Of a stretch of DNA of 32,000 bases, positions 712-27,951 are shown in pieces. A program made the position numbers and the translations under genes. Source of the DNA: Actinomadura macrotermitis (GTDB taxonomy: Bacteria > Actinomycetota > Actinomycetes > Streptosporangiales > Streptosporangiaceae); the NCBI RefSeq assembly GCF_009604375.1, contig NZ_WEGH01000002.1, positions 364,073 to 396,072 of the forward strand, given 5' to 3'. Position 1 is the stretch's first letter, and each line of letters opens with the position of its first letter. The notes below the pieces were generated by a model, which saw only the letters and a list, made by a program, of their open reading frames with translations, was not told the origin of the DNA and did not search any database.

Positions 712-735
712 CACACGCGTCGCGGCCGGGAAACC

Positions 736-779: not shown

Positions 780-781
780 GA

Positions 782-799: not shown

Positions 800-812
800 G
801 AGGTGCTCCGGT

Positions 813-5040: not shown

Positions 5041-5061
5041 GGCGGGTCTCCTCTCTCGCGG

Positions 5062-10765: not shown

Positions 10766-10774
10766 GGGCGTCTC

Positions 10775-11185: not shown

Positions 11186-12436
11186 ATGACCGATCCGTAT
11201 ATGGAAGAAGCCAGGCGATTGGACGCGGCCGATTCTCTTTCGGGTTTCCGGGACAGGTTCGTGATCACCGATCCCGGCATCGCCTATCTGGACGGGAACT
11301 CACTGGGCCGGCTGCCGCGGTCCACCCGCGACCGGCTGCGCGCGCTCGTCGACGAATGGGGCGCGGACCTGATCGACGGCTGGCGGCGGTGGCTGCCGGC
11401 CGGCCGCGAGGCGGGCGACCTCGTCGCACGGATCGTCGGCGCCGAGCCGGGCGAGGTCGTGCTGTCCGACTCGACCGGCGTCAACCTGTACAAGCTGGCC
11501 GTCGCAGCGCTGGACGCCCGGCCGGGACGCGATGTGATCGTCGCCGCCGCCGACGACTTCCCCACCGACCGGTACATCCTGGACGGCATCGCCGCGGCGC
11601 GCGGGCTCAAGGTGCGGTGGCTCGGCTCCGGCCTCGACGACGCCGTGCGACCGGCCGACGTGGAGGCCGCGCTGGACGCCCGGGTCGCGCTGGTGTGCCT
11701 GTCCCACGTGGCGTACCGGTCCGGCGCGGTGGCCGACCTCGCCGGGGTGACGAAAGCGGCGCACCGGCACGGCGCGCTGGTGCTGTGGGACCTGTGCCAC
11801 TCCGCCGGCGCCGTCCAGGTCGGGCTGTCCGCCGCCAACGCGGACCTCGCGGTCGGCTGCACCTACAAGTATCTGAACGGCGGGCCGGGCGCACCCGCCT
11901 TCCTGTACGTGCGGCGGAAGCTCCAGCCCCTGCTGCGGCAGCCGATCTGGGGCTGGTTCGGGCAGACCGACCAGTTCGCCATGGGGCCGGACTACCGGCC
12001 GGTGCCGGCGATCGAACGCTTCCTCGTCGGCACTCCCCCGGTGCTGGCCGGCCATGCGGCGCTGGAAGGGGCGCGCCTGACGGCCGAGGCCGGGATCGAG
12101 GCCATCGCGGCCAAGGCGCGGAGCCTGACCGGGTACGCGCTGCGGCTGGCCGACGCCTGGCTGGCACCGCTCGGGTTCCGGGTCGCCTCGCCTCGCGACG
12201 GGCGGCGGCGCGGCGCCCACCTGACCTTGCACCATCCCTCCGCCTGGCCCGTGTGCCAGGCGGCGAAATCGGCCGGGGTGATCCCGGACTACCGTGCACC
12301 CCAGCGGCTCCGGCTCGGCTTTCCGCCGCTGTACACCCGCCACATCGACGTGCACAGCGGATTGTCGCGGCTGCGCGACGTCGCGGCGACCGGCCGGTAC
12401 AGGGACTTCCCTGACGACCCGAAGGGACTGACATGA
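11186..12436 (+). CDS. kynU: kynureninase (PLP-dependent, aminotransferase class V fold)
   Basis: The N-terminus has FRDRFVI...IYLDGNSLG. The PLP-lysine motif GCTYKYLNGGPGAPAF is the kynureninase signature. 416 aa. There is no RBS, and the ATG lies 6 nt after a TACTGT -10 box. Confidence 0.9.
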   Translation: MTDPYMEEARRLDAADSLSGFRDRFVITDPGIAYLDGNSLGRLPRSTRDRLRALVDEWGADLIDGWRRWLPAGREAGDLVARIVGAEPGEVVLSDSTGVNLYKLAVAALDARPGRDVIVAAADDFPTDRYILDGIAAARGLKVRWLGSGLDDAVRPADVEAALDARVALVCLSHVAYRSGAVADLAGVTKAAHRHGALVLWDLCHSAGAVQVGLSAANADLAVGCTYKYLNGGPGAPAFLYVRRKLQPLLRQPIWGWFGQTDQFAMGPDYRPVPAIERFLVGTPPVLAGHAALEGARLTAEAGIEAIAAKARSLTGYALRLADAWLAPLGFRVASPRDGRRRGAHLTLHHPSAWPVCQAAKSAGVIPDYRAPQRLRLGFPPLYTRHIDVHSGLSRLRDVAATGRYRDFPDDPKGLT

Positions 12437-13245
12437 CGACCACGGGCGACGGCGTCCAGCCGGAGGGCTACCCCGCCCGGCTGGCCCGGCTGACCGACGT
12501 GCCCGACGGCGCGTACCGGACCGTCCGGTACGGACCCGCGCCGGAGCAGTTCGGCGAGTACTGGCCGGGGGGCGACGGGGCGGCCGTGGTCCTGGTCCAC
12601 GGCGGCTACTGGCGCAAGCGCTACCGGCTGGACCTGATGCGCCTGCTCGCCGCCGATCTCAACGCCCGCGGGTTCGCGGTGTGGAACATCGAGTACCGGC
12701 GGATGGACATGGCGGGCGGCGGCTGGCCCGGCACCTTCGACGACGTCTCCGCCGCGCTGGACGCGGTGACCGGCCTCGACGGCGGGGCGGTCGATCCCGC
12801 CCGTGTGGGCCTGGTCGGCCACTCGGCCGGAGGACATCTCGCGCTGTGGGCGGCCCACCGGGCGGCCGGGCCAGGGCGGGTCTCCCCCGCCGCGGTGGTG
12901 TCGCTCGCGGGGGTGTGCGACCTGGTGACGGCCGCGCGGCTGGGGCTGAGCAACGGCGCGGTGGCGGAGCTGCTCGGGGGCGGGCCGGACGACCTGCCGG
13001 AGGTGTACCGGCGAGCCGACCCGATGGCGCTGGTCCCGCTCGGTGTGCCGCAACTGGTGGTGCACGGCACCGCCGACGAGGACGTGCCCATCGAGCTGAG
13101 CCGGCGCTACGCCGAGGCGGCGGGCCGCGAGGCGGTGCTGCTCACCCTGCCGGACGCCGACCATATGGACGTGATCACTCCGGGCACGGCGGCCTGGGCG
13201 CGGATCGCGGAGGAACTGGGCCGGCTCCTGCCGCCCGGCCGGTAA
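12433..13245 (+). CDS. alpha/beta hydrolase, arylformamidase (AFMID/Bna7-type kynurenine formamidase) candidate
   Basis: ATGA overlap with the kynU stop. Motifs present are HGGYW, nucleophile elbow GHSAGGH, and Asp (GTADEDV) and His (DADHMDV) triad positions. 270 aa. Confidence 0.7.
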   Translation: MTTTGDGVQPEGYPARLARLTDVPDGAYRTVRYGPAPEQFGEYWPGGDGAAVVLVHGGYWRKRYRLDLMRLLAADLNARGFAVWNIEYRRMDMAGGGWPGTFDDVSAALDAVTGLDGGAVDPARVGLVGHSAGGHLALWAAHRAAGPGRVSPAAVVSLAGVCDLVTAARLGLSNGAVAELLGGGPDDLPEVYRRADPMALVPLGVPQLVVHGTADEDVPIELSRRYAEAAGREAVLLTLPDADHMDVITPGTAAWARIAEELGRLLPPGR

Positions 13246-13276
13246 GGCGCCCGGGCCGGCCGGGCCGGCGGACGTC

Positions 13277-13310
13277 CGCCTCGGACGGGTTCGCGAACCC
13301 GTCCGAGGCG
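13277..13310. terminator. perfect 34-nt palindrome, likely bidirectional terminator between convergent operons
   Basis: CGCCTCGGACGGGTTCG|CGAACCCGTCCGAGGCG has 17-bp arms. It lies between the formamidase stop (13245) and the halogenase stop (13322). Confidence 0.65.
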
Positions 13311-13321
13311 CCGCCGCCGCG

Positions 13322-14920
13322 TCAGCGGCCGTGAATGGCCCGCAGCAGCTCGTAGTTGCTGGGCAGCGTCTCGGCATACTCCCGCTGGCGGCGCTTGACC
13401 TCATCGAACAGCGGTTCCGCCGCGCGCACCGACTCCGGCTTGTAGGCCAGTGCCGGAAGCGGCCGGTCGGGCAGGAATCCCATCCCGGTGAAGATGCAGT
13501 AATAGCTGCCGTTGGTCCAGAAGTTACGGAACTCCGTTTCGAAGTTGCCGTAGTAGTCGCTCTCGCCCGTGATCGGCTGGTTGATCGCGAGCCCGGCCTT
13601 GTACATCGCCATCTTCTCCTGGATGGCGTCGGACAGCTTGAGTTCTTTGTTGGCCTTCCAGAACTCGGTGTCGATGCGCGGCGAGCAGTAGAAGTGGGCC
13701 TGCAGGAAGTCCCGCGTGTCGTCGAACATCACCTGGATCTCGCGGTTGAAGCGGTCCACGAGGGCCGGGTCGAAGTCGCCGTCCGGGATGAGCTTCGCCA
13801 GCCAGTACAGCGCGGCGTAGGTGAAGTAGATGCCGGTGGACTCCAGCGGCTCGACGAAGCACGAGGCGAGTCCGACGCTGACGCAGTTCTTCACCCAGGC
13901 CCGGCGGTTGCGGCCGACGCGGAACCTGACGTGGTTGAACGTCTCCTTCTCAGGGTCCAGGCCCCACATCCGGCTGAACTCCTCGGTCGCCTCGTCCTGG
14001 GAGGCGAACCGGCTGGAGTACACGTAGCCGGTCCCGAACCGGTCCAGCATCGGGATCTTCCAGGTCCAGCCGGACTTCATCGCGATGGACGAGGTGTACG
14101 GCTCGACCCCGAGGCGCTCGTCGTCGTTGGGGATCGCCGTGGCCACCGCGCGGTCGCACAGCAGGTGGTCGCTCATGTCCACGAAGGGCTCGCCCATGGC
14201 CTTGTTGATGAGCAGGCCGCGGAACCCCGAGCAGTCCACGAACAGGTCGCCTTCCAGCACCCTGCCACTGGCGGTGCGCAGGCCGGTGATGTGGCCGCGC
14301 TCGTCCAGCAGCGCCTCCTGCATCGTGTCCTGGACATGCTCGACGCCCTGGCGCCCGGTGGCGAAGCGGCAGAGGAAGTCGGCGACGAGCTGGGCGTCGA
14401 AGTGCCACGCGTACCGGGTGGCACGGCGGCCGTCCAGCCACCGGGGCCCCCGCTTGGCGTCCATCATGGCCGGTTCCGCCATGCAGGCGTAGTCGAAGGG
14501 CTCGTCGGTCTTCCCGGCGTGGTGGCGCTGGAACCAGTAGTGCGACAGCGGGATCTGGTCCTCGTCCGGCAGCAGGCCGAACGGGTGGTGGAACTGGTCG
14601 GGGCGTCCGTCAAGGTCGCGCGGGGTGCTCTGGGACTCACCGGGGCTGCGCCAGTTGATGAACTTGACCGCCAGCTTGAAGGCGGCGTTGCATTCGCGCA
14701 TCCACTCGTCCTCGGGGATGCCGAGGTAGTCGAAGAACGCCCGCTGCAGGTTCGGCACGGTCGCCTCGCCGACGCCGATGCGCGGGATCGAAGGGGCCTC
14801 CAGCACCGTGATGTCCACGGTGCCCTGTAAGGCCTTGCCCAGATAGGACGCGGCCATCCAGCCGGCCGTCCCCCCGCCGAGAATGACGATCTTCTTGATG
14901 CGGTTGCCGAAGGCGTCCAT
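13322..14920 (-). CDS. flavin-dependent tryptophan halogenase, RebH/PrnA-like (Trp 7-halogenase clade)
   Basis: [19 protein letters not shown] (GxGxxG), catalytic Lys context [21 protein letters not shown] (WxWxIP) and [11 protein letters not shown] (catalytic Glu) are present. Near-colinear similarity along the whole length to my recollection of RebH and PrnA. 532 aa. Confidence 0.93.
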
Positions 14921-14978
14921 GGTTTCCCTGCCCTTCTCCGTGTTTCACGTTCGCGGTGCGGATCGCTGGACCGCGGGC

Positions 14979-15728
14979 TCACACCCTCGCCCGCAGATCC
15001 CAGAGTTCGGGGTAGAAGCGCTTGGCCGTGGTGGCGTGCAGATAGGCCACCCCGGCGGAACCGCCGGTGCCGCGCCGCCGCCCGATGAGGCGCTCCACCA
15101 TGGGGACGTGCCGGGCCCGCCAGAGCCCGAAGCCCTCGTCGTGCTCGATCATCGCCTCGGCCAGCCGGACCAGCCCGTCGCCGGGCACCTCCGCCCGGTA
15201 CAGCTCCACCAGGTCGGGATCGCCCTGCCGCGTGCGCAGCCGCCGGAACTCGTCCCACAGGGACGGTTCGGCCATCCGGCGCTCCAGCCGGGTCCGCTCG
15301 GGCTCCGACATGCGCGTCGTGGTCAGGTAGTCCGGATCCTTCAGCCCGGACAGGAACTCGATCTCGCGGAACTGGACCGACTGCAGGCCGCTGGAGCCCG
15401 CCAGCGTCCCGCGCAGCGCGGCGAAGCCCCCCGGGCTGATCGTCTCCAGCGTGGCGACCTGCGCGACCAGGATCTCCTCCACCGCGCGGACGCGCCGCAG
15501 GCAGTACACCGCGCGCGGGATGTCGTCGGCCGCCACCGCCGCGACGGCCGCGTCCAGCTCATAAAGGACGATCTTGAATTGCAGCTCGTACACCTGGTGC
15601 ACGGTGAAGAAGAAATGCGCGTCGTGCGCCTCCGCCGACTCCCGCTGCAAGGACAGCAGCGTGTCCAGCCGCAGGAAGTCCCCGTAGCGCGGTTCCCACG
15701 ACGCCGGCTCCGCCGGCGCCCGCGACAT
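14979..15728 (-). CDS. kynA: tryptophan 2,3-dioxygenase (heme-dependent)
   Basis: Distal His region FFTVHQVYELQFK. Proximal His and the GTGGS motif are in WRARHVPMVERLIGRRRGTGGSAGVAYL. The ATG shares 1 nt with the TauD stop (TGATG). 249 aa. Confidence 0.88.
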   Translation of the reverse strand: MSRAPAEPASWEPRYGDFLRLDTLLSLQRESAEAHDAHFFFTVHQVYELQFKIVLYELDAAVAAVAADDIPRAVYCLRRVRAVEEILVAQVATLETISPGGFAALRGTLAGSSGLQSVQFREIEFLSGLKDPDYLTTTRMSEPERTRLERRMAEPSLWDEFRRLRTRQGDPDLVELYRAEVPGDGLVRLAEAMIEHDEGFGLWRARHVPMVERLIGRRRGTGGSAGVAYLHATTAKRFYPELWDLRARV

Positions 15729-16594
15729 CAGTAGGACTCCTTCGCGTTCACGCGGGCCGGCGCGTAACGCTCGCCCGGCCTGGGCCGGAAGTGCTCCCAC
15801 CGGGGCCGGTCGCCGTCGGGGCTGTCGCCGAGGACGACGACGCGCAGTCCCGTCCGGCGCTCGGCGTAGTCGTCGACGGCATAGTGCTGCGTGGCCCTGT
15901 TGTCCCAGATCGCCACGTCGCCGTCCCGCCACCGGTGGCGGCAGGTGAACTCCGGGGACGTGGAGAACTCGCAGAGGAACTGCAGGAGCGCGTCGCTCTC
16001 GTTGCGGCTGAGCTGCGCGATGTGCGAGGTGTGGGCCCGGTTGACGAACAGGGACCGCCGCCCGGTCTCCGGATGCACCCGGACGACGGGGTGCTCCGCC
16101 CTGCTGTCCAGCCCCGGAATGTGGATGGCGTGGATCGCGGTGAGGCCGTCGAGCAGCTCGCGCAGAGGCGCCGACAGGGCCTCGTACGCCAGGTACTGGT
16201 TCGACCACATGGTGTCGCCGCCCGTGCCGGGACTGCGCACGATCTGCAGGATGGAGCCGATGGGCGGGTTCGGCGAGTAGGTCATGTCGGTGTGCCAGAT
16301 CGGGATCTTGCCGTCCTGCTCCGAGTCGATGATCTGAATCTCCGGATGCCCCTCCAGATGCGGCAGGTAGGGGTGGACCTCCAGTTCCCCGAAGCGCCGG
16401 CCGAACGCCACGCGCGACCCGGGCGGCCAGTCGTGCTGGCCCCGGATGAAGATCACCAGGTATCTCAGCAGCAGCCGGCGCAGCTCCGCGAACTCCTCAT
16501 CGGTGATCTCCGCGAGCCGCACGCCGCGGACCTCGGCGCCCAGCGCGCCCGACAGCGGCCGGACATCGAACGCCGTCGTCATTGACTCCGCCAT
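15728..16594 (-). CDS. TauD/TfdA-family Fe(II)/2-oxoglutarate-dependent dioxygenase
   Basis: HxD facial triad in [10 protein letters not shown] and the distal His in [11 protein letters not shown]. The N-terminus [19 protein letters not shown] is typical of the family. An alternative ATG exists at 16582. 288 aa. Confidence 0.88.
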
Positions 16595-16641
16595 CTCTCA
16601 CACTTCCGTTCTCATCGGTCAGCGGTACATCCGGGTCCGGC

Positions 16642-17931
16642 TCACTCCGGCGCGAGCGAGGGCATCGCCCTGCGATCGGGCAGCACGCCCAGCTGGAAGA
16701 GCCTGTCCAGCGGCCCGAGGCGGCGCATGCCGAGGCCCGACATGTTGTAGGTCGTCAGATAGCTGAGCCGCGCGCTCCTGGCCGTGCCGGACAGCAGCCG
16801 CCGGCCCAGCAGCCGGCCGCCGCGCGACGTGGAGGTCATCATGCGCGCGGCGTTGTGGCTCATCGCGTGGACGTCGCCGATCCTGCCCATCCGCTGGTCC
16901 TCGTAGCCGCGCAGCGCCCCGTCCACCGCCGCGCCGTCACCAAAGTCGATGCCGGAGAGCCGGGCGGCGAGCGCGTGCGCGTCGCCGATGGCCGTGTTCA
17001 TCCCCTGGGCGGCCAGGGGATGCACGCTGTGCGCGGCCTCACCGATCAGGGCGATGCCGGGCCGCGCCAGCGACGCGGCCACGTACCGCCAGACCTTCAG
17101 CAGCTGGCGGCGGTCCAGGCCGCCGGGGATCGCGGACGCGAGCGGGCCGAGCGCGGGCACCTGACCGACGAGTTCCGCGGTCCACCGCCGCAGCCGGTCC
17201 GCCCCACCTCCCCTCATCTCGTCCGCCGTCACCTGGACATAGACGCGTGTCGCCCCCTCCGGCAGCGGATAGACCATGACCAGCCCGCGGTCGGTGACAT
17301 AGGCGGACACCTCGCCGGCGACCGGCGGCGGGCACGGCAGCTCGAAGGTCAGGAGCCGGTGACCGTAGGCGACGGGCTCCGCCGCGATCCCCGCCGACCT
17401 GCGCAGCCGCGAGGACATGCCGTCCGCCGCCACGACGAGCCGCGCGCCGATGTCGCGCGTGGCGCCGCCCTCGGTGACCCGCACTCCGGCGACACGGCCG
17501 CCGGGGTCCCTGATGACGTCGTCCACCAGGACACCGCGCCGCCACCGCACCGTCGGGCCCAGCGACTCCCCGAGGCACTCCAGGATCGTCGTGTAGTGGT
17601 GGGACAGCATCCAGGACCGCTCGCCGCCGAGCGCCCCGAAGTCCATGGCCAGCAGTTCGGCGCCGTCCGCCCTCCTGGCGACGAGCCGGTCGATGCGGAC
17701 CGCCCGCCTGGCCTCCAGCGTGCGGAGCACGTCCCACCCCTGCAGGATGTCCAGCGAGCCGGGCTGGAGGACCTCGCCCTTCGCGATCGGGGGCTGCCGG
17801 CGCTTCTTGTCCAGCAGGACCACGTCCAGCCCGAGCCTGCCGAGGGCGTTGGCCGCCGCCAGGCCCGCGACGCCTGATCCGCAGATCACGACGTCGGCGT
17901 CCAGGGGTTGCGGCGCGTATCCCGTTGTCAT
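16642..17931 (-). CDS. FAD-dependent monooxygenase (group A), squalene-epoxidase-like signature; candidate terminal-olefin epoxidase
   Basis: Motifs: GxGxxG (VVICGSGVAGLAAA), AKGEVLQPGS (compare squalene epoxidase GELLQPGG), DG motif AADGMSSRLRR, and GD motif GEAAHSVHPLAAQGMNTAIGDA. ATGA overlap with the cyclase stop. 429 aa. Confidence 0.8.
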   Translation of the reverse strand: MTTGYAPQPLDADVVICGSGVAGLAAANALGRLGLDVVLLDKKRRQPPIAKGEVLQPGSLDILQGWDVLRTLEARRAVRIDRLVARRADGAELLAMDFGALGGERSWMLSHHYTTILECLGESLGPTVRWRRGVLVDDVIRDPGGRVAGVRVTEGGATRDIGARLVVAADGMSSRLRRSAGIAAEPVAYGHRLLTFELPCPPPVAGEVSAYVTDRGLVMVYPLPEGATRVYVQVTADEMRGGGADRLRRWTAELVGQVPALGPLASAIPGGLDRRQLLKVWRYVAASLARPGIALIGEAAHSVHPLAAQGMNTAIGDAHALAARLSGIDFGDGAAVDGALRGYEDQRMGRIGDVHAMSHNAARMMTSTSRGGRLLGRRLLSGTARSARLSYLTTYNMSGLGMRRLGPLDRLFQLGVLPDRRAMPSLAPE

Positions 17932-19655
17932 GACGCCCTCTGTTTCTCGAACGGGCCGTCCGCCGCCGCGGCCCGGTAGCTCCCGAGCGCCTTGAGGGCG
18001 AGCCCGTTGACGATCAGACCGTCCACGTAGTAGGCGAGATCGCGGATGTGCATGCAGACCGGGCTCGCCTTCCACAGGCCGTCGCTCTGCTGGGCGGAGA
18101 CGATCCATCCGGCCGCGCGCCGCAGGCGCGGGTCGTCCGCCGGTACGCCGCAGGCGAGCAGGCCCCGCAGGGCCCACGCGGTCTCCTCCACCGTCCCCGC
18201 CGAGGCGTCGTCGCCGGGCGTGCCGGTCTCACCCGGCCCCCACGACCCGTCCGCGAGCTGGGCGTCCAGCAGGGCCTCGCGGGCGCGCACGGCGACCGGG
18301 TGGCCGGCGAGCCCGGTACGGCCGAAGGCCACGAGCGCCATGGACGTCCCCGGAGTGAGCCCGCGGTACCAGAGGGCCTCATAGGTGCCGTCGGCACGCT
18401 GGTGGGCGAGCAGCCAGTCCAGCGCCTTGCCGATTCCCGGGTCCTGCCGGGAGGCGCCGCCGTCGAGCAGGACTTCGACGGACTGCGCGGTCACGTAGGG
18501 GCACGGGCCGTCGTTCGCGAGCGTGGTGTCGGGCACGAAGGTCCCCCACGAGCCCGTGCGGTCCTGCCGCGACTCCAGCCAGCGCAGCCCGCGCCGCAGG
18601 CTCTCCGCCCCGTCCTCCCCGCCGCCTTCCCGGCCGGCCGCCACGAGGGCGGACAGCACATTGGCGCTGTCGAGGATGTTCGGCCACCCCCGGGGCCCTT
18701 CCCAGCCCCAGCCGCCGGGGGGCGCGTCGAAGATCGCGAACGCCTCGTCCTGCTGGCAGCCGCGCAGCCACCGCCTCGCGCGCGCCAGCCGGGGGTCGGC
18801 GGCGAACCCGGCATCCGCCAGGCCGCGCGCGATGTAGGAACCGCCGATCAGATCGAGTCCCTGCATGATGTGCCAGGAGCCGTCCGCGTGCACGTTCGAC
18901 CGGAGGTAGCCGACGGCCTCGGAGATCAGGGCGTCCGGCGCGCCGGCGCAGCACAGGCCGATGCACACCACCGCGACCAGCCAGTTGTCCCCGCCGTAGC
19001 CGCCGCGATCGTTCTCGCCGCGTTCCACCTCCGCGAGCGCGCGGAGCCCGGCCGATCTGGCCGGCCGGCTCAGCAGGCGCTGGAAGCCCTTCGGCGGGCT
19101 GTGCCGCGCCTGGACGAACGCCATGGCGACGAAAGGCGCCACCCGGAAGGACAGCCGGGCACGCCAGAACCGCCGGGGGAGCATGAGCAGCTCCAGCGGG
19201 ATGCGCCGTGCCCCCCGGATGTCCCCGAGGCCCGCCAGCATGAGGAAGGTCGCGGCCATGTGGGCCATACCGGGATCGGTGAACGCCCGCATCCCACCCT
19301 GCCGGTCCAGCAGGTCCGTCGCGCGCCGCACCGGTTCCCGCGACGCCTGCGGATCCAGCAGGTGCAGGGCCGACGCCGCGACCACGGTCGGCACCGGCTG
19401 CGTGGGGGCTCCGGCGACCCCGCCCCACCCGCCGTCGGCGTTCTGGGCGCCCGCCAGCCACCGGACGCCCCGCTCGACCAGGTCGCGCGAGCGCTCGGGA
19501 TCGGCCAGGTGCAGGGCGACGACCGCGCCGGCCGTGCCCAGTACGGCGGTGGGCCGCCGGTTCGGCCAGGATCCGTCCGGGCGCTGCAGCGCGAACAGGG
19601 CCTCGGCGGCCCGCACGACCGAACCCTCGATCCGACTGTTCATGGTCGCGCACAT
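17928..19655 (-). CDS. squalene-hopene-cyclase-fold (alpha/alpha toroid) class II terpene cyclase-like protein, DxDD motif absent
   Basis: At least 5 QW-type repeats: ALQRPDGSW, WLAGAQNADGGWG, WLESRQDRTGSWG, WLLAHQRADGTY, WIVSAQQSDGLW. The C-terminal half is colinear with SHC. The position aligned to SHC YPDVDDTA reads WPNILDSA. Start 19655 was chosen for GAGGG at -9; the 19760 alternative would overlap ubiA by 70 nt. Confidence 0.8.
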   Translation of the reverse strand: MCATMNSRIEGSVVRAAEALFALQRPDGSWPNRRPTAVLGTAGAVVALHLADPERSRDLVERGVRWLAGAQNADGGWGGVAGAPTQPVPTVVAASALHLLDPQASREPVRRATDLLDRQGGMRAFTDPGMAHMAATFLMLAGLGDIRGARRIPLELLMLPRRFWRARLSFRVAPFVAMAFVQARHSPPKGFQRLLSRPARSAGLRALAEVERGENDRGGYGGDNWLVAVVCIGLCCAGAPDALISEAVGYLRSNVHADGSWHIMQGLDLIGGSYIARGLADAGFAADPRLARARRWLRGCQQDEAFAIFDAPPGGWGWEGPRGWPNILDSANVLSALVAAGREGGGEDGAESLRRGLRWLESRQDRTGSWGTFVPDTTLANDGPCPYVTAQSVEVLLDGGASRQDPGIGKALDWLLAHQRADGTYEALWYRGLTPGTSMALVAFGRTGLAGHPVAVRAREALLDAQLADGSWGPGETGTPGDDASAGTVEETAWALRGLLACGVPADDPRLRRAAGWIVSAQQSDGLWKASPVCMHIRDLAYYVDGLIVNGLALKALGSYRAAAADGPFEKQRAS

Positions 19656-19689
19656 GGGACCACCCTCGTCTTCCCTCGCTTCGTATCGG

Positions 19690-20754
19690 TCAACGCAGAC
19701 GCTCCGCCCGTGCCGGCGTGAACGACAGGACCGCCCCCGCGCCGTCCGGCCCGGCGGCACCGGGCGTGTGCGCGCGGTCGCCCGGCGGGAACTCGTGCGC
19801 GGAACGCATCGCCCGCTGGGTGCCGAGGGTGACCGCGAGCATCGGCAGGAGGAGCGCGATCGCCACCGGCAAGCCGAGGCCCGGCACGAGCAGAGCGTCC
19901 GCGAGCACGAGCCGTTCGGCGACGAGCACCTCGTGCGACCGCAGGGCGGCGCGCCACGGCGGGACGCGCCCGGGGACGAAGAGCACCCTGAACGCGTGGC
20001 AGCCGAGCGCCGCGGCGACCAGGGTCACGGCGAGCGACGTCCACCGGCCGCCCGGCACCACCAGGAGTCCCGCCACCGCCGCCGCGACGGCCACGCCGTA
20101 GAGCGCGACGGCGGCCCACGCCCCCGCCCGGACGCCGTGACGCACGGCGAAGGTGGCATAGCCGCCCTCGCGGTCCCCGGCGACGTCGCGCAGCGTCCCG
20201 ACCAGGTTCGAGGCGGCGTCGTGCGCCGAGAACACCAGCACGAACGGAAGCAGCCCGATCGGCGGCGCGGACGTGGCCATCATCGCGCCGAACAGGAGCG
20301 CGCCACCGGTGAGGGCGCCGCGCACGAGGTTGCCCCACAGTCCCCGCGCCTTGAAGAAGCCGTTGTAGGCGACCGCGCCTCCGATGCCGCCCGCCAAGAT
20401 CAGGAGCGTGCGCCAGTTGACGATCAGCGCGACCGCGCAGGCCCCCGCCGCGAGGATCACCCCGCAGGCGAGCGCGGTCGAGGGCCGCAACTGCCCCGAC
20501 GGGATGGGCCGCTGCGGTTTCCCGATCGCGTCGAGGTCGCGGTCGAGGTAGTCGCCCAGGTAGTGCGCCGCGATCCAGACCAGGGTCGGGACCAGCCACG
20601 CGACGAGCGGGCCCGCCGCCTGCCGCCCGCCGCCGGCGATCTCGCGGGTCAGGCTCTCGCCGGCCAGCCCCACCAGGCCGACGTACCAGAGGGTGTAGGG
20701 CCGCCATGTCCGCAGGTGGGCGGTGAGCGTCCTTCGGAACCGGTGGCCGCTCAT
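19690..20754 (-). CDS. UbiA-superfamily membrane prenyltransferase (ChlG/BchG/DGGGP-synthase-like Asp-rich motifs)
   Basis: First Asp-rich motif is HYLGDYLDRDLDAIGKPQRPIPSGQL and the second is LRDVAGDREGG. The protein has multiple hydrophobic TM segments. The ATG abuts the upstream TGA (TGAATG). 354 aa. Confidence 0.88.
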   Translation of the reverse strand: MSGHRFRRTLTAHLRTWRPYTLWYVGLVGLAGESLTREIAGGGRQAAGPLVAWLVPTLVWIAAHYLGDYLDRDLDAIGKPQRPIPSGQLRPSTALACGVILAAGACAVALIVNWRTLLILAGGIGGAVAYNGFFKARGLWGNLVRGALTGGALLFGAMMATSAPPIGLLPFVLVFSAHDAASNLVGTLRDVAGDREGGYATFAVRHGVRAGAWAAVALYGVAVAAAVAGLLVVPGGRWTSLAVTLVAAALGCHAFRVLFVPGRVPPWRAALRSHEVLVAERLVLADALLVPGLGLPVAIALLLPMLAVTLGTQRAMRSAHEFPPGDRAHTPGAAGPDGAGAVLSFTPARAERLR

Positions 20755-21789
20755 TCAGAACCGCCTCCGGGCCGCGTAGTCCGCGATCCCCGCCAGCGTG
20801 ACGACGCTCTCGCAGGCCGGAAGAGCCGTGAGGCGGTCCTTGGCCTGGCGGATCAGCCCGGCGGCGACCTCCCCGGCCGCCTCCCGGGCGCCCGTCGCCT
20901 CCAGGACCTCGCTCACCACGGCGTAGGACCTGTCCGCCGGCTGGTCTTCGTGGAAGGCACGCGCCAGCCTCTTGCGCTCGTCGGCGGAGGCGCGCTGGTA
21001 TCCCAGCAGGATCGGCAGGGTGGGGCGATGGTTGTGCAGATCGCTTTCCTGGGGCTTGCCGATGAGCGCGGACGTGCCGTCGAACGCCAGCAGGTCGTCA
21101 CGGATCTGGAAGGCGACGCCCAGGCGGCTCCCGAAGACGCCCAGCGCCTCGACCCACTCCTGCGGAGCGTCGCCGAGGATCGCACCCGCCCGGCAGGACG
21201 CCTCGAACAGCGCCCCCGTCTTCAGCCCGGCCATCGTCAGATACCGGTCGACCCCGCACTCCAGGTCGCCGACGAGCTCGGTCTCCATGAGCTGCCCGCG
21301 GCACACGCTCAGCCCGGCCTCGGCCGTGACGTTCACGAGCGCCACGACGGCGTCCGCCGGGACGTCCCCGGGCAGCGGGCCCGTCAGGGCCGCGAAGGTC
21401 TCCAGCAGCAGCCCGTCTCCGGCGACGATGGCGGACGCGAGGCCGAAGGCCGCCTGGACCGAGGGGCGGCCCCGGCGCATGTCGTCCTCGTCGATGATGT
21501 CGTCGTGGACCAGCGTCGCGACGTGCAGGTACTCCAGGGCGAGGGCCGGCCGGGCCAGGTCCTCGGGACGGCCGCCGACGCACCGTGCCGACTCGAGCAC
21601 CAGCAGCGGCCGGAGCAGCTTGCCCGCCGGCACCAGGGCGTACTCCGAGATGCGGTCCAGCAGGTTGTCGTGGCGGCCCTGCCAGAGCCCGAGCAGGTCG
21701 CGTTCCAGAAGGTCGCGGCCCTCCAGGAACGCGGCCGGGTCCGGCCGCCCGGCCGCTCGTAAGTGTGCGTCTTCGTCGATCGTGCTCAT
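20755..21789 (-). CDS. trans-polyprenyl diphosphate synthase (IspB/GGPPS-like)
   Basis: FARM LVHDDIIDEDDMRRG and SARM FQIRDDLLAFDG are present. ATGA overlap with the FAH-gene stop. 344 aa. Confidence 0.92.
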   Translation of the reverse strand: MSTIDEDAHLRAAGRPDPAAFLEGRDLLERDLLGLWQGRHDNLLDRISEYALVPAGKLLRPLLVLESARCVGGRPEDLARPALALEYLHVATLVHDDIIDEDDMRRGRPSVQAAFGLASAIVAGDGLLLETFAALTGPLPGDVPADAVVALVNVTAEAGLSVCRGQLMETELVGDLECGVDRYLTMAGLKTGALFEASCRAGAILGDAPQEWVEALGVFGSRLGVAFQIRDDLLAFDGTSALIGKPQESDLHNHRPTLPILLGYQRASADERKRLARAFHEDQPADRSYAVVSEVLEATGAREAAGEVAAGLIRQAKDRLTALPACESVVTLAGIADYAARRRF

Positions 21790-22610
21790 GGCGTGAACGA
21801 CCTTTCTCGTTCGCTTCCGGCGGCGTCCGGCTCCCGGGCCGCGCCGGACGGCTCGTCGATGGTGTTGCACAAGGCGCCGATGCCCTCGATCGCCACCTCG
21901 ACCCGGCTGCCCGGCGGCAGCGGACCGGAGCCCGCGGGGGTACCGGTGAGGATCACGTCCCCGGGCAGCAGCGTCATGTGCTCGCTGACCAGGGCGATGA
22001 CGTCGTGGACCGGGGTGCGCAGTTCCCGGGTGCTGCCGCGCTGCCGGATCGCGCCGTCCACGCTGCACGTGATCTCGGCGTCCGCCACGTCCAGGTCCGT
22101 CGCCAGCCAGGGCCCCAGGGGCGTGCAGCCGTCGAAGTGCTTGGCCCACACCAGGTCCCCGGCCGGAGCGCCGCCGTCCTGCGGGTGCGCGTACGCCGTG
22201 ATGTCGTTCGCGCACGTGTAGCCCGCCACGACCTCCTCCGCATGCGCCGGGAGGACCTTCTTGCAGCGCGTTCCGATCACGATGGCCAGTTCCGCCTCGT
22301 GCTTCAGCAGCCAGGGGCGCCCCGGATGGCCGATGGAGGTCCAGGGGCCGGTGAGCGATGACGGCGGCTTCAGGACGACGGCGGTGGAGGCGGGGTCCGC
22401 CGGGCGCCCGGTCCCGTGGTTGAGGGCGATGCAAACGACCTTGGTCGGCTCGGCGGGGGCCAGGACCGTGACCTCGCTGATCGGCCGCGCGGGACCGGAG
22501 CGCCGCACCCAGCGCCTGGTGTCCCGGTCGTAGTCGGCCGGGACGACGTGGTCGTCGTCGACGCGCCCGTATCCGCGCCGGCCACCGTCGGAATACCTGC
22601 AGACGAGCAT
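21786..22610 (-). CDS. fumarylacetoacetate hydrolase (FAH) family protein
   Basis: HEAELAIVIG metal-binding region, NDITA, and C-terminal LLPGDVILTGTPAG. ATG 22610 is preceded by GGAAGGAG-N5 and is preferred over 22625. 274 aa. Confidence 0.85.
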   Translation of the reverse strand: MLVCRYSDGGRRGYGRVDDDHVVPADYDRDTRRWVRRSGPARPISEVTVLAPAEPTKVVCIALNHGTGRPADPASTAVVLKPPSSLTGPWTSIGHPGRPWLLKHEAELAIVIGTRCKKVLPAHAEEVVAGYTCANDITAYAHPQDGGAPAGDLVWAKHFDGCTPLGPWLATDLDVADAEITCSVDGAIRQRGSTRELRTPVHDVIALVSEHMTLLPGDVILTGTPAGSGPLPPGSRVEVAIEGIGALCNTIDEPSGAAREPDAAGSERERSFTP

Positions 22611-22647
22611 GTGTGCTCCTTCCATGCGGACCGGGCAAGAGGCGGTC

Positions 22648-23829
22648 TCACCAGGTCACGGGCAGCTCCTCCAGGCGGAGCGTCACATGGCCGCCCCGCC
22701 AGCGCAGGCTCTCCGGCGGCACCGCCAGATCCAGGCGCGGGAAGCGGCGCAAAAGCGCCGAGAACGCGGTCTTCAACTCGGCCCGCGCCAGGGCGGCGCC
22801 GAGGCAGTGGTGCGCTCCGTGGCCGAACGCCAGGTGCGGGTTCGGCTCCCGGGCGATCTCGAAGCGGTCGCCGCCGGGGAAGACCTCGTCGTCACGGTTG
22901 GCGGAGTTGATCGATATCTGGACCAGGTCGCCCGCGCGCACGAGCCGCTCGCCCAGCCACACGTCCTCGGTGGCCTTCTGGACCCGGTTGAGGTCGATGA
23001 CCGGCTGGAAGCGGAGGAGCTCCTCGATCGCCGAGTCGATGAGGCCGGGGTCGGCGCGCAGCCTGCCCAGCTGGTCCGGGTTCCGCAGGAGCCTGGCCAG
23101 CCCGGCGCTGATCGCGGTCTGGGTCGTCTCGAGCCCGCCCGCCAGGAGGACGATCACGAGCAGGACGAGTTCCTCGTGGGTGAGCCGCTCCTCGTCGTCG
23201 TGGGCCTGGACCAGGGTGCTCAGCAGGTCGGTGCCCGGCCCCGTGCCCGCGCGTCTCGCCCGGACCGCCCGGTCGATGTAGGCGCCGAGTTCCAGGCCCG
23301 CCTGCCGGCCGGGTCCTTGCCCGTCCACCGTGGTGATGCGATCGCACCAGTCGCTGAGCATCTCGTGGTCGGCATGGGGGAAACCGAGCAGTTCGCAGAT
23401 GACGATGGACGGCAGCGGGGCGGCGAAATGCCGGACCAGGTCCGCGGGCGGCCCCTGCTCCTCCATGGAGTCGAGCAGCCGGCCGGCCACCCGCTGGATG
23501 CGCGGGCGCATGGCCTCGACCCGCCGGACGGTGAACGCCTTCGACACCAGGCCGCGCAGTTGCGCGTGCGGGCGGCCGTCCATGTTCACCGTCCGCACCG
23601 GGCTCGCCCCGTCCCCGCCATCGCGCGGTTCCGTGAGATCGCGGGTGAACCGGCCGCCCACCAGCACCGTCCGGACGTCCTCGTGGCGGGTCACCAGCCA
23701 GGCGGTCCGGCCGTCGGGCAGGCGGACCCGGGATGCGGGGCCCTGCCCGCGCAGCGCGTCGAACTCCGGGGGGAGCTCGCCCGCATAATCGGCGGAACTC
23801 GGATAATCGATGATGTAATCCCTAGGCAT
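22648..23829 (-). CDS. cytochrome P450 monooxygenase (first gene of the nine-gene operon)
   Basis: I-helix AGGLETT, ExxR (EELLR) and heme loop FGHGAHHCLGAALARAE. There is no RBS, and an AT-rich codon run follows the start. 393 aa. Confidence 0.92.
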   Translation of the reverse strand: MPRDYIIDYPSSADYAGELPPEFDALRGQGPASRVRLPDGRTAWLVTRHEDVRTVLVGGRFTRDLTEPRDGGDGASPVRTVNMDGRPHAQLRGLVSKAFTVRRVEAMRPRIQRVAGRLLDSMEEQGPPADLVRHFAAPLPSIVICELLGFPHADHEMLSDWCDRITTVDGQGPGRQAGLELGAYIDRAVRARRAGTGPGTDLLSTLVQAHDDEERLTHEELVLLVIVLLAGGLETTQTAISAGLARLLRNPDQLGRLRADPGLIDSAIEELLRFQPVIDLNRVQKATEDVWLGERLVRAGDLVQISINSANRDDEVFPGGDRFEIAREPNPHLAFGHGAHHCLGAALARAELKTAFSALLRRFPRLDLAVPPESLRWRGGHVTLRLEELPVTW

Positions 23830-24057: not shown

Positions 24058-26640
24058 ATGCTATATGACCCACCGGCGGCGGTCATCGCCCCGGCCGGCA
24101 GAATCGACCGCTCCCTCCGGGCAGAGGCACGCCGCACCGCATTTCTCTTCCAGGACGGGGTGATGCTGGCCTCCGCGGTCCGGGCGCTGGATGCGTTCGG
24201 GCTGCTCGACGGCGCACCGTACGGCAAGGGCGACCTCCCCGACAGCGGATATCTGCGCGCTCTCTGGCGCGGCCTGGCCGCCGCCGGCTGGATCGACCCC
24301 GCCCCCTCCCCCGCCTGGACCGAACGCGGCCGGAACGCGCTTCGGAACCGCTCGCGCTATGTCGCCGGCGGCCGGTTCCTCGCCCGCTTCGACGACAACG
24401 CGCCCGACTCCTGGGCCAGGCCCTGGGACGGCCCGGCCGAAGCCGCCTTCGCCGAAGCGCTCGACACGCACGAGACGTGGCGCCGCACCGCCGACCCGGA
24501 CGCGCCGGGCACCGTCCACCTCGACGCGCCCCTCGCCCTTCCCGCGATCCTGACGCTGCACGGGACGGGACGCCTCCACCGCCCCGGCGGGGACTTCGCC
24601 CGCCTCTTCCGGCTCCTCGGCTGGCTCGGCCCCGACGGCGCGTGGACCCCGCGGGGACGGGCGGGTCTCGACTTCGCCGGCCACTGCGGCCTCATCGGCT
24701 CCTACCTTCCGATGCTGAGCCGGCTGGAACCGCTGTTACGCGGCGAGCTGCTCGTCGTCCCGGGGGACGGCGAGTGGCACTGCCAGCGCCGGATCAACGT
24801 CGAGGCGAGCTCGGCGGCCCACCGGCGGTATTTCACCGACGCCGACCCCGTCATCAGGGAGATCTTCCGGCGCAGGCCGCGGCCCGCGTTCATCGCCGAC
24901 ACGGGGTGCGGCGACGGGAGCTGGCTGGCCCACCTGCACGGCATGCTCGGCGACGGCATCCGCTACGTCGGCATCGACGTCAGCCCGGTCGCGCTCGACC
25001 GCGCCCGTGCCGTCCTGGAGGCGGCCGGCGTGCCCGACCCGCTGCTGCTGCCGGGGGACGTCACCGACCCCGACGCGCTGGCGAGGCTGCTCACCCGGCA
25101 CGGGCTCGCCATCGAGGACGGGCTGCACATCCGGTCGTTCATCGACCATGACCGCACCTATGCCGGCGGGGACCCCGCCAGCGGCGCACCCGGCCGGTCC
25201 TCAGGCGCCTATGTCTCCCCGGACGGCGCCCCGCTGAGCCCCGCGCAGATCGAGTCGGACCTCGTCCGGCATCTCCGGCGCTGGGCGCCCCACGTCCGCG
25301 AGCACGGCCTCGTCGTCCTGGAGGCGCACAGCGTGGCCCCGCGCCTGGCCCGGCGCCACCCCGGCGCACTGCACTCGGTGGCCCTGGACACCTATCACGC
25401 CCTGTCCCACCAGTACCTCGTGGAGCACTCCGCGTTCCTGCACTGCTGCCGCCTGGCGGGGCTGGAACCCGTGGGCCACCTGGAGCGCCGCTACCCGAGC
25501 GGCCGCCCCTTCGTTGCGGTCTCCCTCAACCATCTGGTGCCCGCCAGGCCGTTCCCCCGCCACGAGCCGGCCGAGCGCCGCGACACCTGGCAGCCGGAGC
25601 CGGGCACGGACCTGGCCGACGGCCGGAAACTCCACGATCTGCTGTTCACCGGCGGTGACCTGACCCGGCCCCGGGGGTGGTGCGCCGGAGCGACCGGGAT
25701 CGTCGTGCGGCATGTGCTGGAGGCCGTGGAGTCCCGCATCGGGCAGGTGCGCCCGGGCGACGCCGTCCGGGTGCTGGACTACGGCGCGGGAACCGGCCTG
25801 GCGTCCATCGAACTGATCAAGGCGTGCGCCGAGCGGGACGTCCCGGGCCGGCTGGCCGAGCGCGGCGCCTCCCTCGAACTGCATCTGGTGGACATCCCAG
25901 GCAGTTGGTTCGCGCAGGGGTTCGCGCTGCTGCGCGACCTGTCATGGACGCGCTTCCACGCGTTACGCGGCGCCGATGGCCGGTTCCGCCCGCTCCTCGA
26001 CGTCACCGCGGGCCGGCAGGTGGACGCGGTGCTGGCGAACATGGTCTTCCACCTGCTCGACGACAAGGCGATGCGCAAGGCCGTGCCCTCCATCGCCGGG
26101 GTGCTGCGGCCGGGAGGCGTCCTCGCGTTCAGCGCGCCCGACCTCGCCGCGCCGGCCGCGGATTCCCTGCTGTTCCACGACGCCAACCGCCTGATGCGCA
26201 GGTACTGGCTCGCCGCCCTTGACGACGAGCGCCCCGAAGCCCTCTCCCCCGTCCTGAGGGAGGCGGCGGCGAGCGTTCGCGGCGTGTCGCGCTCCAGCGC
26301 CCAGCGGCGCGCGGACCGCCGGATCCTGCCGAGACCGCGGCACGGCGACGCGGTCGCCGCGGAGCTGGCACCGTACTTCGCCGGGGCCGTCGAACGCCGT
26401 ACCTACGAGATCCTGGCCGAGGAATGCCTGATGGCCGCGCTCGTTCCGGCCAACCAGCGGGAGTATCTCGCGGAGATCTCCGACCCGGTTCTACGCGAGG
26501 AGGTGATTCGCCATCTCCTCCTCGACCGGGTGCTGCCCGAACTGATGGACGGCCCCGCCGGAACGGCGCACGGGCTCAACCTGGAATGGAAGATCGGCCG
26601 GTTCACCCGAACGGCCCCTAGCACACATGCGGTCGAGTGA
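24058..26640 (+). CDS. 860-aa protein with two class I SAM-methyltransferase domains in tandem plus an N-terminal ~250-aa domain
   Basis: ATG 24058 is preceded by GGAGA-N8. MT motif I number 1 is FIADTGCGDGSW (24889-24924); number 2 is VLDYGAGTG (25771-25797), followed by VLRPGGVLAFSAPD. The 23884 start in the track lies within promoter-like sequence. Confidence 0.75.
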   Translation: MLYDPPAAVIAPAGRIDRSLRAEARRTAFLFQDGVMLASAVRALDAFGLLDGAPYGKGDLPDSGYLRALWRGLAAAGWIDPAPSPAWTERGRNALRNRSRYVAGGRFLARFDDNAPDSWARPWDGPAEAAFAEALDTHETWRRTADPDAPGTVHLDAPLALPAILTLHGTGRLHRPGGDFARLFRLLGWLGPDGAWTPRGRAGLDFAGHCGLIGSYLPMLSRLEPLLRGELLVVPGDGEWHCQRRINVEASSAAHRRYFTDADPVIREIFRRRPRPAFIADTGCGDGSWLAHLHGMLGDGIRYVGIDVSPVALDRARAVLEAAGVPDPLLLPGDVTDPDALARLLTRHGLAIEDGLHIRSFIDHDRTYAGGDPASGAPGRSSGAYVSPDGAPLSPAQIESDLVRHLRRWAPHVREHGLVVLEAHSVAPRLARRHPGALHSVALDTYHALSHQYLVEHSAFLHCCRLAGLEPVGHLERRYPSGRPFVAVSLNHLVPARPFPRHEPAERRDTWQPEPGTDLADGRKLHDLLFTGGDLTRPRGWCAGATGIVVRHVLEAVESRIGQVRPGDAVRVLDYGAGTGLASIELIKACAERDVPGRLAERGASLELHLVDIPGSWFAQGFALLRDLSWTRFHALRGADGRFRPLLDVTAGRQVDAVLANMVFHLLDDKAMRKAVPSIAGVLRPGGVLAFSAPDLAAPAADSLLFHDANRLMRRYWLAALDDERPEALSPVLREAAASVRGVSRSSAQRRADRRILPRPRHGDAVAAELAPYFAGAVERRTYEILAEECLMAALVPANQREYLAEISDPVLREEVIRHLLLDRVLPELMDGPAGTAHGLNLEWKIGRFTRTAPSTHAVE

Positions 26641-27943: not shown

Positions 27944-27951
27944 GGGGCGCC

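Follow-up and report, generated by a model that had tools for sequence, protein, structure and literature searches.

Terpenoids of the phenalinolactone/brasilicardin/tiancilactone/atolypene family are defined by a shared set of four biosynthetic enzymes, PlaT4, PlaT3, PlaT2 and PlaT1 (PMC11317874, PMC11600129). The subject here is a stretch of the Actinomadura macrotermitis genome (32,000 nt of contig NZ_WEGH01000002.1, positions 364,073 to 396,072, called the window below) in which a set of this kind forms part of a nine-gene operon, at window positions 13322-23829, that ends in a tryptophan 2,3-dioxygenase (TDO) and a tryptophan (Trp) halogenase. As discussed in detail below, the window is probably a cluster for a perhydrophenanthrene diterpenoid of the phenalinolactone/tiancilactone family, in which the terpenoid and a chloroanthranilate unit are made separately and joined by acylation.

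In the phenalinolactone (pla) pathway of Streptomyces sp. Tu6071, prenylation of a C3 keto acid is followed by epoxidation and then by cyclisation, and PlaT1-4 alone, expressed heterologously, give C23 products with a three-carbon tail (PMC11317874). Cyclases of the PlaT2/TnlT2 clade are reported to carry a single acid in an xxxD/Exxx motif and to protonate an epoxide. The gamma-butyrolactone of phenalinolactone is formed by the Fe(II)/2-oxoglutarate enzyme PlaO1 (PMC12006828). Two parts of the pathway are reported as unknown, namely where the C3 alpha-keto acid tail comes from and which enzyme carries out the C-15/C-16 desaturation (PMC11317874, PMC12006828). The finished phenalinolactone bears a deoxysugar and an acyl decoration, the latter being 5-methylpyrrole-2-carboxylate and not a Trp-derived chloroanthranilate. 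The brasilicardin (bra) and atolypene (ato) clusters have the same four-gene core, again with prenylation and epoxidation before cyclisation, but they encode an aminotransferase, keep an amino-acid tail, have no PlaO1-type oxygenase, halogenase or TDO, and use cyclases that fall in clades III and IV as opposed to clade VI.

The closest described system is the tiancilactone (tnl) cluster. Tiancilactones are antibiotic diterpenoids that bear a chloroanthranilate and a gamma-butyrolactone, made by Streptomyces sp. CB03234 and discovered by mining for atypical type II diterpene synthases. The cluster of strains CB03234/CB03238 was reportedly described by Dong et al. in ChemBioChem in 2018, and a pathway that attaches a chloro-aryl acid derived from Trp to a diterpenoid of the PlaT type has reportedly been in print since that year. 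In the CB03234 locus the terpene operon runs one way, and a divergent set of genes encodes an AMP-ligase, a 91-aa carrier protein, a cytochrome P450, an alpha/beta hydrolase, a TDO and a 504-aa Trp halogenase. Next come a TetR regulator, a further P450, methyltransferases and an NAD-epimerase. The arrangement recurs in Streptomyces sp. NBC_00191, together with a separate flavin reductase and genes of the methylerythritol phosphate (MEP) pathway.

Two other systems share part of the logic. In taromycin biosynthesis the TDO Tar13 and the halogenase Tar14 supply 4-chlorokynurenine, while platensimycin and platencin unite an aryl acid of the aminobenzoate type with a diterpenoid that is cyclised on its own. 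In these two compounds a terpenoid acid is linked through an amide, the aryl unit is neither Trp-derived nor chlorinated, and the cyclases are of the ent-copalyl diphosphate (ent-CPP) type with a DxDD motif.

Nine open reading frames (ORFs) fill positions 13322-23829 of the window, whose G+C content is about 73%. Coding blocks were judged from a frame plot of third-position GC (GC3) over the window, in which this interval appears as unbroken minus-strand coding with GC3 of 0.85-0.99; families were assigned by Pfam matches above gathering cut-offs, with NCBIfam scores read against the equivalog cut-offs, and all nine products score above the Pfam gathering level. In order of transcription the genes encode a P450 (G9), an FAH-family protein (G8), a polyprenyl synthase (G7), a UbiA prenyltransferase (G6), a class II cyclase (G5), a flavin adenine dinucleotide (FAD)-dependent epoxidase (G4), a TauD-family protein (G3), the TDO (G2) and the Trp halogenase (G1); coordinates of all features are collected in Table 1. 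Read directly in the sequence, the junctions include ATGA overlaps at 21786-21789 and 17928-17931, a TGAATG abutment at 20752-20757 and a TGATG with a shared A at 15728. Elsewhere there are gaps of 34 nt (UbiA/cyclase), 47 nt (epoxidase/TauD), 58 nt (TDO/halogenase) and 22 nt (P450/FAH), the last becoming 37 nt if the FAH gene begins at the ATG at 22610. This ATG is preceded by GGAAGGAG, was also chosen as the start in a separate gene call made independently, and is the probable true start. The gene families and operon structure proposed in an earlier note on this DNA agree with the Pfam calls and the GC3 coding block, and each of the four junctions that it listed (two ATGA, one TGAATG, one TGATG) is present.

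The same nine genes in the same order, the TGATG junction included, are found in Actinomadura litoris, and because of this conservation the arrangement is not one of chance. We infer that the nine genes are transcribed as a single unit. A simple consensus scan found no terminator-like sites within the operon, though the scan for sigma-70 and terminator signals proved uninformative in this high-GC DNA. Just beyond its 3' end, where G1 and w10 converge, lies a hairpin that may terminate transcription in both directions, as is common in actinomycetes: the 91-nt stretch 13240-13330 folds at -64.8 kcal/mol (z = -3.72), a value reached by none of 200 shuffles, and the hairpin has no U tract. A dip in GC at 13-15 kb (0.68, against 0.72-0.76) might have pointed to recent acquisition, but that reading was rejected; since GC3 stays at 0.95 there, the dip is an effect of amino-acid composition.

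The four core genes, G4-G7, are contiguous at 16642-21789, all of their junctions overlapping or abutting except the UbiA/cyclase gap. They share the PlaT1-T4 logic of the pla cluster (epoxidase, DxDD-less cyclase, UbiA, geranylgeranyl diphosphate (GGPP) synthase), a likeness drawn from gene families. The synthase G7 is 65% identical to its tnl counterpart, has the motifs DDIID and DDLLAFD with small residues, A and T, at -5/-4 before the first, and is presumably a GGPP synthase with a predicted chain length of C20. The prenyltransferase G6 (70% to the tnl UbiA) carries two Asp-rich motifs, DYLDRDLD (at 71) and DVAGD (at 190), and the epoxidase G4 is likewise 70% identical to the tnl enzyme. 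A regular-expression search of the whole of G5, which is 74% identical to the CB03234 cyclase and 87% to that of A. litoris, found DxDD nowhere. Residues 326-332 read NILDSAN, near the position of the AtoE E314 motif, and the CB03234 cyclase has NFLDSAN; the register against squalene-hopene cyclase was judged by eye, phmmer and a local aligner having matched internal repeats and not the DxDD region. The motif was settled by the regular expression and the comparison with the CB03234 enzyme, and NILDSAN fits the xxxD/Exxx pattern of the PlaT2/TnlT2 clade.

The remaining members of the terpenoid half flank this core. G3 aligns with PlaO1 (PDB 7qtd) without gaps, residues 1-288 on 1-288, at 78% identity (E 1.6e-159, 533 bits), as compared with 222 bits for a genuine TauD, and it is 86% identical to the tnl protein. 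Judged by its sequence it is a PlaO1 orthologue and not a taurine dioxygenase, and it is the predicted former of the gamma-butyrolactone. The earlier note had grouped it with the halogenase and the TDO in one module. Its likeness to PlaO1, and its presence in 18 of the 19 related loci described below with or without a TDO or halogenase nearby, place it instead in the terpenoid half.

At the other end of the operon, the P450 G9, 71% identical to its CB03234 counterpart and 85% to that of A. litoris, is followed by the FAH-family protein G8, whose closest solved relatives are the HpaG/HpcE isomerase-decarboxylases (154 bits), with FAHD1 at 78 bits. FAH-fold relatives include acylpyruvases/oxaloacetate decarboxylases and 2-oxo-enoate isomerases/hydratases, and an FAH-fold gene is found in all 19 related loci (L002-L020). 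The ato cluster, whose product keeps its amino-acid tail, is listed without an FAH-type gene (PMC11600129). Because FAH-fold enzymes have these activities and two steps lack enzymes in the literature, G8, perhaps together with G9, is a candidate for the origin of the C3 tail or the C-15/C-16 desaturation. It is possible that the FAH-fold protein explains the origin or the processing of the C3 keto-acid tail.

Turning to the Trp-derived half, the halogenase G1 belongs to the Thal/BorH/RebH clade. It has the motifs GGGTAG and WTWKIP, and its scores against solved structures are 916 bits for Thal, 890 for BorH and 854 for the 7-halogenase RebH. Thal, a Trp 6-halogenase, acquires 7-selectivity through five changes (V52I, V82I, S360T, G469S and S470N); at these positions G1 has V, V, T, G and S. 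Since four of the five are Thal-like, G1 is predicted, with moderate confidence, to chlorinate Trp at C-6. The TDO, G2, is 91% identical to the A. litoris enzyme and scores 203 bits with NCBIfam trp_2_3_diox, under the equivalog cut-off.

On the plus strand, and converging on the nine-gene operon, lies a translationally coupled pair of genes for a kynureninase (w09) and an alpha/beta hydrolase (w10). The kynureninase is 90% identical to the A. litoris protein and passes the TIGR01814 cut-off (248 bits against 246.4). The hydrolase, of a type that recurs beside the TDO/halogenase pair in three other loci (L002, L081 and L082), is a candidate N-formylkynurenine formamidase on the strength of its genomic context. 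By enzyme families, then, the window encodes a complete predicted route from Trp to chloroanthranilate. No kynureninase was found in the examined region of the CB03234 cluster. The pairing of a Trp halogenase with a TDO for a chlorinated intermediate of the kynurenine pathway recalls taromycin, from which the window differs in that its route would run on through kynureninase to anthranilate and feed a terpenoid, not a nonribosomal peptide synthetase (NRPS). The enzymes differ as well, Tar14 belonging to a Tar14/SttH clade and G1 to the Thal/RebH clade.

The genes that would activate the aryl acid are set apart from the operon. The AMP-ligase w06 is presumed to act on chloroanthranilate, and its neighbour w05 is a fusion: its N-terminal part matches the tnl PP-binding protein of 91 aa at 71% identity, and its C-terminal part matches Pfam Flavin_Reduct and the HsaB/StyB reductases. 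In Streptomyces sp. NBC_00191 (L084) two genes encode the carrier and the flavin reductase, while the CB03234 cluster (L080) has no such reductase.

How close, then, is this locus to the tiancilactone cluster? The seven-gene terpenoid operon from the P450 to the TauD-family gene occurs in identical order in CB03234, at 65-86% amino-acid identity, and the resemblance extends to the AMP-ligase, carrier, P450, hydrolase, TetR regulator and one methyltransferase, at 56-71% identity (Table 1). Window, CB03234 and NBC_00191 also have in common the set of Trp halogenase, TDO, AMP-ligase and carrier. The halogenases and the TDOs, however, are not orthologous: G1 is 38% identical to the tnl halogenase and G2 31% to the tnl TDO. 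By clade, the tnl enzyme groups with SttH, Tar14 and PyrH, a solved Tar14-like halogenase (6nsd) being among its relatives, while G1 is of the Thal/RebH clade. Halogenase and TDO genes end the divergent aryl-acid operon in the tnl locus, whereas here they close the terpene operon at its 3' end, a TGATG linking them to the PlaO1 orthologue. Relative to tnl, the window adds the kynureninase, the BD-FAE hydrolase and the carrier-fused flavin reductase, along with an AprA-MT-like double methyltransferase, a P450 with its ferredoxin, a PapA5-like acyltransferase and deoxysugar genes; it is without two of the tnl methyltransferases and the NAD-epimerase.

Because its halogenase and TDO are not orthologous to the tnl enzymes, the locus is filed as a variant of the tnl-type cluster and not as the tnl cluster itself. 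A non-orthologous cassette, placed last in the terpene operon, appears to have taken the place of the published cluster's genes for chloroanthranilate supply. Replacement is favoured over inheritance because the halogenase and TDO identities fall so far below the 65-86% of the terpenoid genes and because the clades differ.

These comparisons also bear on the novelty that the earlier note had claimed, namely that no described pathway has both halves together. In the CB03234 locus a Trp halogenase and a TDO lie about 10 kb from the same cyclase/UbiA/epoxidase/synthase operon, so the claim does not survive. The result that the note itself named as refuting, a match to a cluster of known product, is nearly reached: gene families and synteny agree, at 65-86% identity, but the halogenase and TDO are non-orthologous and sit in a divergent operon there. 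A full-text literature search returned no paper in which Trp halogenase, kynureninase, terpene cyclase, UbiA and anthranilate occur together. The combination of a Trp halogenase and a TDO with the synthase/UbiA/epoxidase/cyclase set is already published and widespread, and the cluster is a rearranged relative of the tiancilactone pathway that involves no new biosynthetic principle.

The breadth of the family was gauged with the cyclase as query against one genome per prokaryotic species. Nineteen actinomycete loci matched at 64-87% identity, the next matches falling below 31%; the best was that of A. litoris NEAU-AAG5. Over 21.6 kb the window and the A. litoris locus are 89.5% identical at the nucleotide level and collinear except for an antiporter gene. 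When all window proteins were compared with the 19 loci by tblastn, the P450-FAH-synthase-UbiA-cyclase-epoxidase-TauD operon was present in the same order in 11, and the other eight had the operon without the synthase only, save that the most distant locus (L017) was also without the TauD gene. TDOs of the tnl type (72-75%) occur in four further loci of the 19 and in the genomes of three others. The terpene operon is also found in loci that have no TDO or halogenase within 10 kb.

The layout with the TDO and halogenase at the end of the operon recurs in A. litoris, where the junction is identical, and in Polymorphospora sp. NPDC051019, where an antiporter gene intervenes and the convergent hydrolase-kynureninase pair is also present. 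The cassette turns up in other surroundings as well. In one metagenome contig (L082, 6640-16897) an aminotransferase, a TDO, a Thal-type halogenase 87% identical to G1 and a convergent BD-FAE hydrolase adjoin a DDE transposase and an NRPS C-A-T-TE module, and there is no kynureninase. A second locus (L083, 1106-9983) has a halogenase 81% identical to G1 beside a ketosynthase/chain-length factor (KS/CLF) pair, an AMP-ligase and a carrier protein, and possibly encodes a halogenated aryl-primed type II polyketide. On such gene neighbourhoods, the TDO/halogenase/hydrolase set behaves as a portable module.

The pathway proposed for the window takes its terpenoid steps, as far as the tricyclic core, from experiments on the homologues PlaT1-4 (PMC11317874), its lactone step from analogy with PlaO1 (PMC12006828) and its aryl steps from enzyme families. 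G7 would provide GGPP; after prenylation, the flavoenzyme G4 would epoxidise the terminal alkene, and the DxDD-less cyclase G5 would open the epoxide to give a tricyclic core with a C-3 hydroxyl. G3 would convert the keto-acid tail into the gamma-butyrolactone, with tailoring by the P450 G9 and the FAH-fold protein G8. In parallel, G1 would chlorinate free L-Trp, probably at C-6 to give 6-chlorotryptophan, using FADH2 from the reductase half of w05. G2 would open the indole ring to N-formyl-chlorokynurenine (N-formyl-4-chlorokynurenine), w10 would remove the formyl group to leave 4-chlorokynurenine, and the kynureninase w09 would release chloroanthranilate, the 4-chloro isomer if G1 is 6-specific. 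The ligase w06 would then adenylate the acid and load it onto the carrier half of w05, from which an acyltransferase, w23 and w03 being the candidates, would esterify the chloroanthraniloyl group to a hydroxyl on either the terpenoid or its sugar. The two halves would thus meet by acylation and not by aryl prenylation.

Several points weigh against parts of this scheme. Of the two candidate acyltransferases, w23 is missing from tnl-type loci and w03 has no established role; no named formamidase is among the solved-structure matches of w10; and the residue at the S360 position of G1 is T, as in RebH, so that 6-regiochemistry relies on the other four switch residues. The C20 chain length comes from homology only. 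The CB03234 locus (L005/L080) is equated with the published tnl cluster by way of the strain's name and its gene content rather than by accession, and the product, transcripts and enzyme activities of the locus are predictions from sequence.

There is room for doubt about where the aryl acid would be attached. The chloroanthraniloyl group could sit on a deoxysugar, or be amide-linked to an amino group, in place of the core ester presumed for tiancilactones. Phenalinolactones are glycosides with acyl decoration, the window has deoxysugar genes at 29497-32000, the Polymorphospora homologue is also flanked by deoxysugar genes (including a DegT aminotransferase), and the PapA5-like acyltransferase is a feature of this locus that tnl-type loci do not have. 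Even so, attachment of this sort is unlikely: no glycosyltransferase is seen inside the window, which stops at 32000, and the AMP-ligase/carrier/hydrolase set is orthologous to that of tnl, suggesting the same type of acceptor.

The earlier note had put first a true aryl meroterpenoid built by the logic of the fungal PaxG/C/M/B enzymes. On such a model UbiA would prenylate a chlorinated acceptor derived from Trp, kynurenine or anthranilate, and the prenyl chain would then be cyclised on the aromatic unit, much as fungal indole diterpenes and aurachin-type quinolines are built. Aromatic acceptors are indeed common for UbiA enzymes, and the acceptor of PlaT3 is chemically unproven, so that an amino acid is still possible (PMC11317874); moreover, the genes for aryl supply are translationally coupled to the terpene operon. 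Yet the PaxG/C/M/B logic is disfavoured because PlaT3 uses a C3 acceptor, PlaT1-4 alone giving products with the three-carbon tail (PMC11317874), and because G6, 70% identical to the tnl UbiA, sits in the conserved operon, which also occurs where there is no TDO or halogenase within 10 kb. The window has no KS genes for quinoline formation, and the AMP-ligase/carrier pair shared with tnl, together with the acyltransferase candidates, suggests acyl transfer. In the known product of the family, chloroanthranilate is a moiety of its own. An aryl meroterpenoid is therefore very unlikely here, and it is the alternative offered in the same note, a chlorinated aryl unit placed on a separately made cyclic terpenoid, that the tnl homology and the acylation genes support.

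Least probable of all is that the halogenase/TDO cassette serves some other product, such as a 4-chlorokynurenine peptide of the taromycin kind, and merely adjoins an unchlorinated terpenoid pathway: a related TDO/halogenase/BD-FAE cassette does stand beside an NRPS module in the metagenome contig and another close halogenase homologue beside KS/CLF genes, but the 32-kb window holds no NRPS or polyketide synthase (PKS), the TGATG coupling to the PlaO1 orthologue is kept in A. litoris, a dedicated kynureninase takes the route past kynurenine to anthranilate, and the aryl-acid activation genes are shared with the cluster for the chloroanthranilate-bearing tiancilactones.

The PapA5-like, AprA-MT1-like and deoxysugar genes suggest a new, possibly glycosylated congener. 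There is about an even chance that the clusters of the window, A. litoris and Polymorphospora make up an undescribed congener class in which phenalinolactone and tiancilactone features are mixed, the product being a glycosylated, extra-methylated, 4-chloroanthraniloyl gamma-butyrolactone perhydrophenanthrene diterpenoid whose self-sufficient Trp-to-chloroanthranilate cassette was independently recruited. If so, the precursor-supply module would have undergone non-orthologous replacement within one cluster family: the supply of chloroanthranilate would have been retained, an unrelated cassette, joined to the core operon, having taken over from the original genes. The finding is of value for the new congeners that are likely here and as a clear instance of such replacement and operon fusion. 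With a set of tailoring genes unlike that of every characterised family member, the locus is a reasonable target for new antibiotics of the tiancilactone/phenalinolactone type, and the culturable A. litoris NEAU-AAG5 carries the same cluster.

Table 1. Genes and other features of the 32,000-nt window, by position; identities are at the amino-acid level
Gene	Product or feature	Positions	Strand	Basis and remarks
	Left-edge partial ORF	1-711		No Pfam match
	Further P450, ORF	417-1988	+	
	Beta-lactamase-fold protein	2012-3466		Left edge, before the TetR gene w02
w02	TetR-family regulator	3583-4182	+	Pfam TetR_N; 65% to TetR of tnl cluster
w03	Alpha/beta hydrolase, common to tnl aryl-acid cassette	4195-5040	-	Pfam Abhydrolase_1; 63% to tnl
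w04	P450, common to tnl aryl-acid cassette	5062-6267	-	Pfam p450; 69% to tnl counterpart
w05	Carrier protein-flavin reductase fusion, 259 aa	6264-7043	-	Match to tnl carrier (71%); Pfam Flavin_Reduct
w06	AMP-dependent ligase	7055-8566	-	Pfam AMP-binding, AMP-binding_C; 69% to tnl AMP-ligase
w07	Class I S-adenosylmethionine (SAM) methyltransferase	8595-9419	-	Pfam Methyltransf_11/23/25; 56% to tnl methyltransferase, 88% to A. litoris
	Na+/H+ antiporter	9452-10765		
w09	Kynureninase	11186-12436	+	NCBIfam TIGR01814 equivalog; Pfam KYNU_C, Aminotran_5
w10	Alpha/beta hydrolase, BD-FAE family	12433-13245	+	Pfam BD-FAE; ATGA overlap with kynureninase gene
	Hairpin, perfect 14 bp, GC-rich, 4-nt loop (candidate terminator)	13278-13309		In 76-nt gap between convergent G1 and w10
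G1	Flavin-dependent Trp halogenase, Thal/BorH/RebH clade	13322-14920	-	Pfam Trp_halogenase, 551 bits
G2	Tryptophan 2,3-dioxygenase	14979-15728	-	Pfam Trp_dioxygenase; TGATG overlap with G3
G3	Fe(II)/2-oxoglutarate oxygenase, predicted PlaO1 orthologue	15728-16594	-	Pfam TauD; PDB 7qtd match
G4	FAD-dependent epoxidase, PlaT1-like	16642-17931	-	Pfam FAD_binding_3, squalene epoxidase SE
G5	Non-canonical class II terpene cyclase, PlaT2/TnlT2-like	17928-19655	-	Pfam SQHop_cyclase N and C
G6	UbiA-family prenyltransferase, PlaT3-like	19690-20754	-	Pfam UbiA
G7	Polyprenyl diphosphate synthase, PlaT4/TnlT4-like	20755-21789	-	Pfam polyprenyl_synt
G8	FAH-family protein	21786-22625	-	Pfam FAA_hydrolase, Rv2993c-like_N; ATGA overlap with polyprenyl synthase gene
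G9	Cytochrome P450, first gene of conserved seven-gene terpenoid operon	22648-23829	-	Pfam p450
w20	Double methyltransferase, 860 aa, AprA MT-like, divergent from operon	24058-26640	+	Methyltransf_36 (223 bits), Methyltransf_12
w21, w22	P450 and its ferredoxin	26738-28182	+	Pfam p450, Fer4_13; 90% and 82% to A. litoris
w23	PapA5-like condensation-fold acyltransferase	28226-29464	+	Pfam PapA_C, Condensation; HHAVADG motif in translation
w24-w26	MycE-like methyltransferase, dTDP-4-dehydrorhamnose 3,5-epimerase, GFO/IDH/MocA oxidoreductase	29497-32000	+	MycE_N, dTDP_sugar_isom, GFO_IDH_MocA

Among the related loci, the double methyltransferase w20, the P450/ferredoxin pair and the acyltransferase w23 are found only in the window and in A. 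litoris. The first of these is 86% identical to the A. litoris protein and absent from tnl-type loci; among solved structures it comes nearest, with scores of about 148 bits, to AprA MT1 and to 7uci, a 'polyketide synthase-related protein', and its Methyltransf_36 domain is AprA MT2-like. The acyltransferase is 81% identical to the A. litoris protein and scores 161 bits with the NCBIfam PapA5 subfamily, under the cut-off. The gene for the GFO/IDH/MocA oxidoreductase is cut by the window end at 32000. At the opposite edge of the window, GC3 phase favours the plus-strand P450 over an ORF on the minus strand at 753-1802, which was rejected.

Some of the related loci depart from the common plan. 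In the eight where the polyprenyl synthase is not inside the operon (L008, L010-L012, L014, L017, L018 and L020), all except L017 are also without an orthologous AMP-ligase (28% or no match), and in these a P450 (P450a), a methyltransferase and an alpha/beta hydrolase directly flank the terpene operon; the subgroup probably has a different pattern of decoration. In Actinoplanes flavus (L016) a TDO of the window type (71%) lies at 4659-5372, divergent from the terpene operon, and the AMP-ligase is 61% identical. As there is no Trp halogenase within 10 kb, this locus may represent an unchlorinated anthranilate variant.

The Polymorphospora operon contains no polyprenyl synthase gene either, and its UbiA and class II cyclase form one 926-aa ORF with a single terminal stop (L081, 2756-5536), a natural fusion that fits prenylation before cyclisation. 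The antiporter region of the window (9467-10786) is the sole break in collinearity with A. litoris, in which the antiporter is absent at that point. A homologous exchanger lies between the TauD and TDO genes in Polymorphospora (L081, 7765-9201) and beside the TauD gene in CB03234 (L005), and is therefore mobile within the cluster family.

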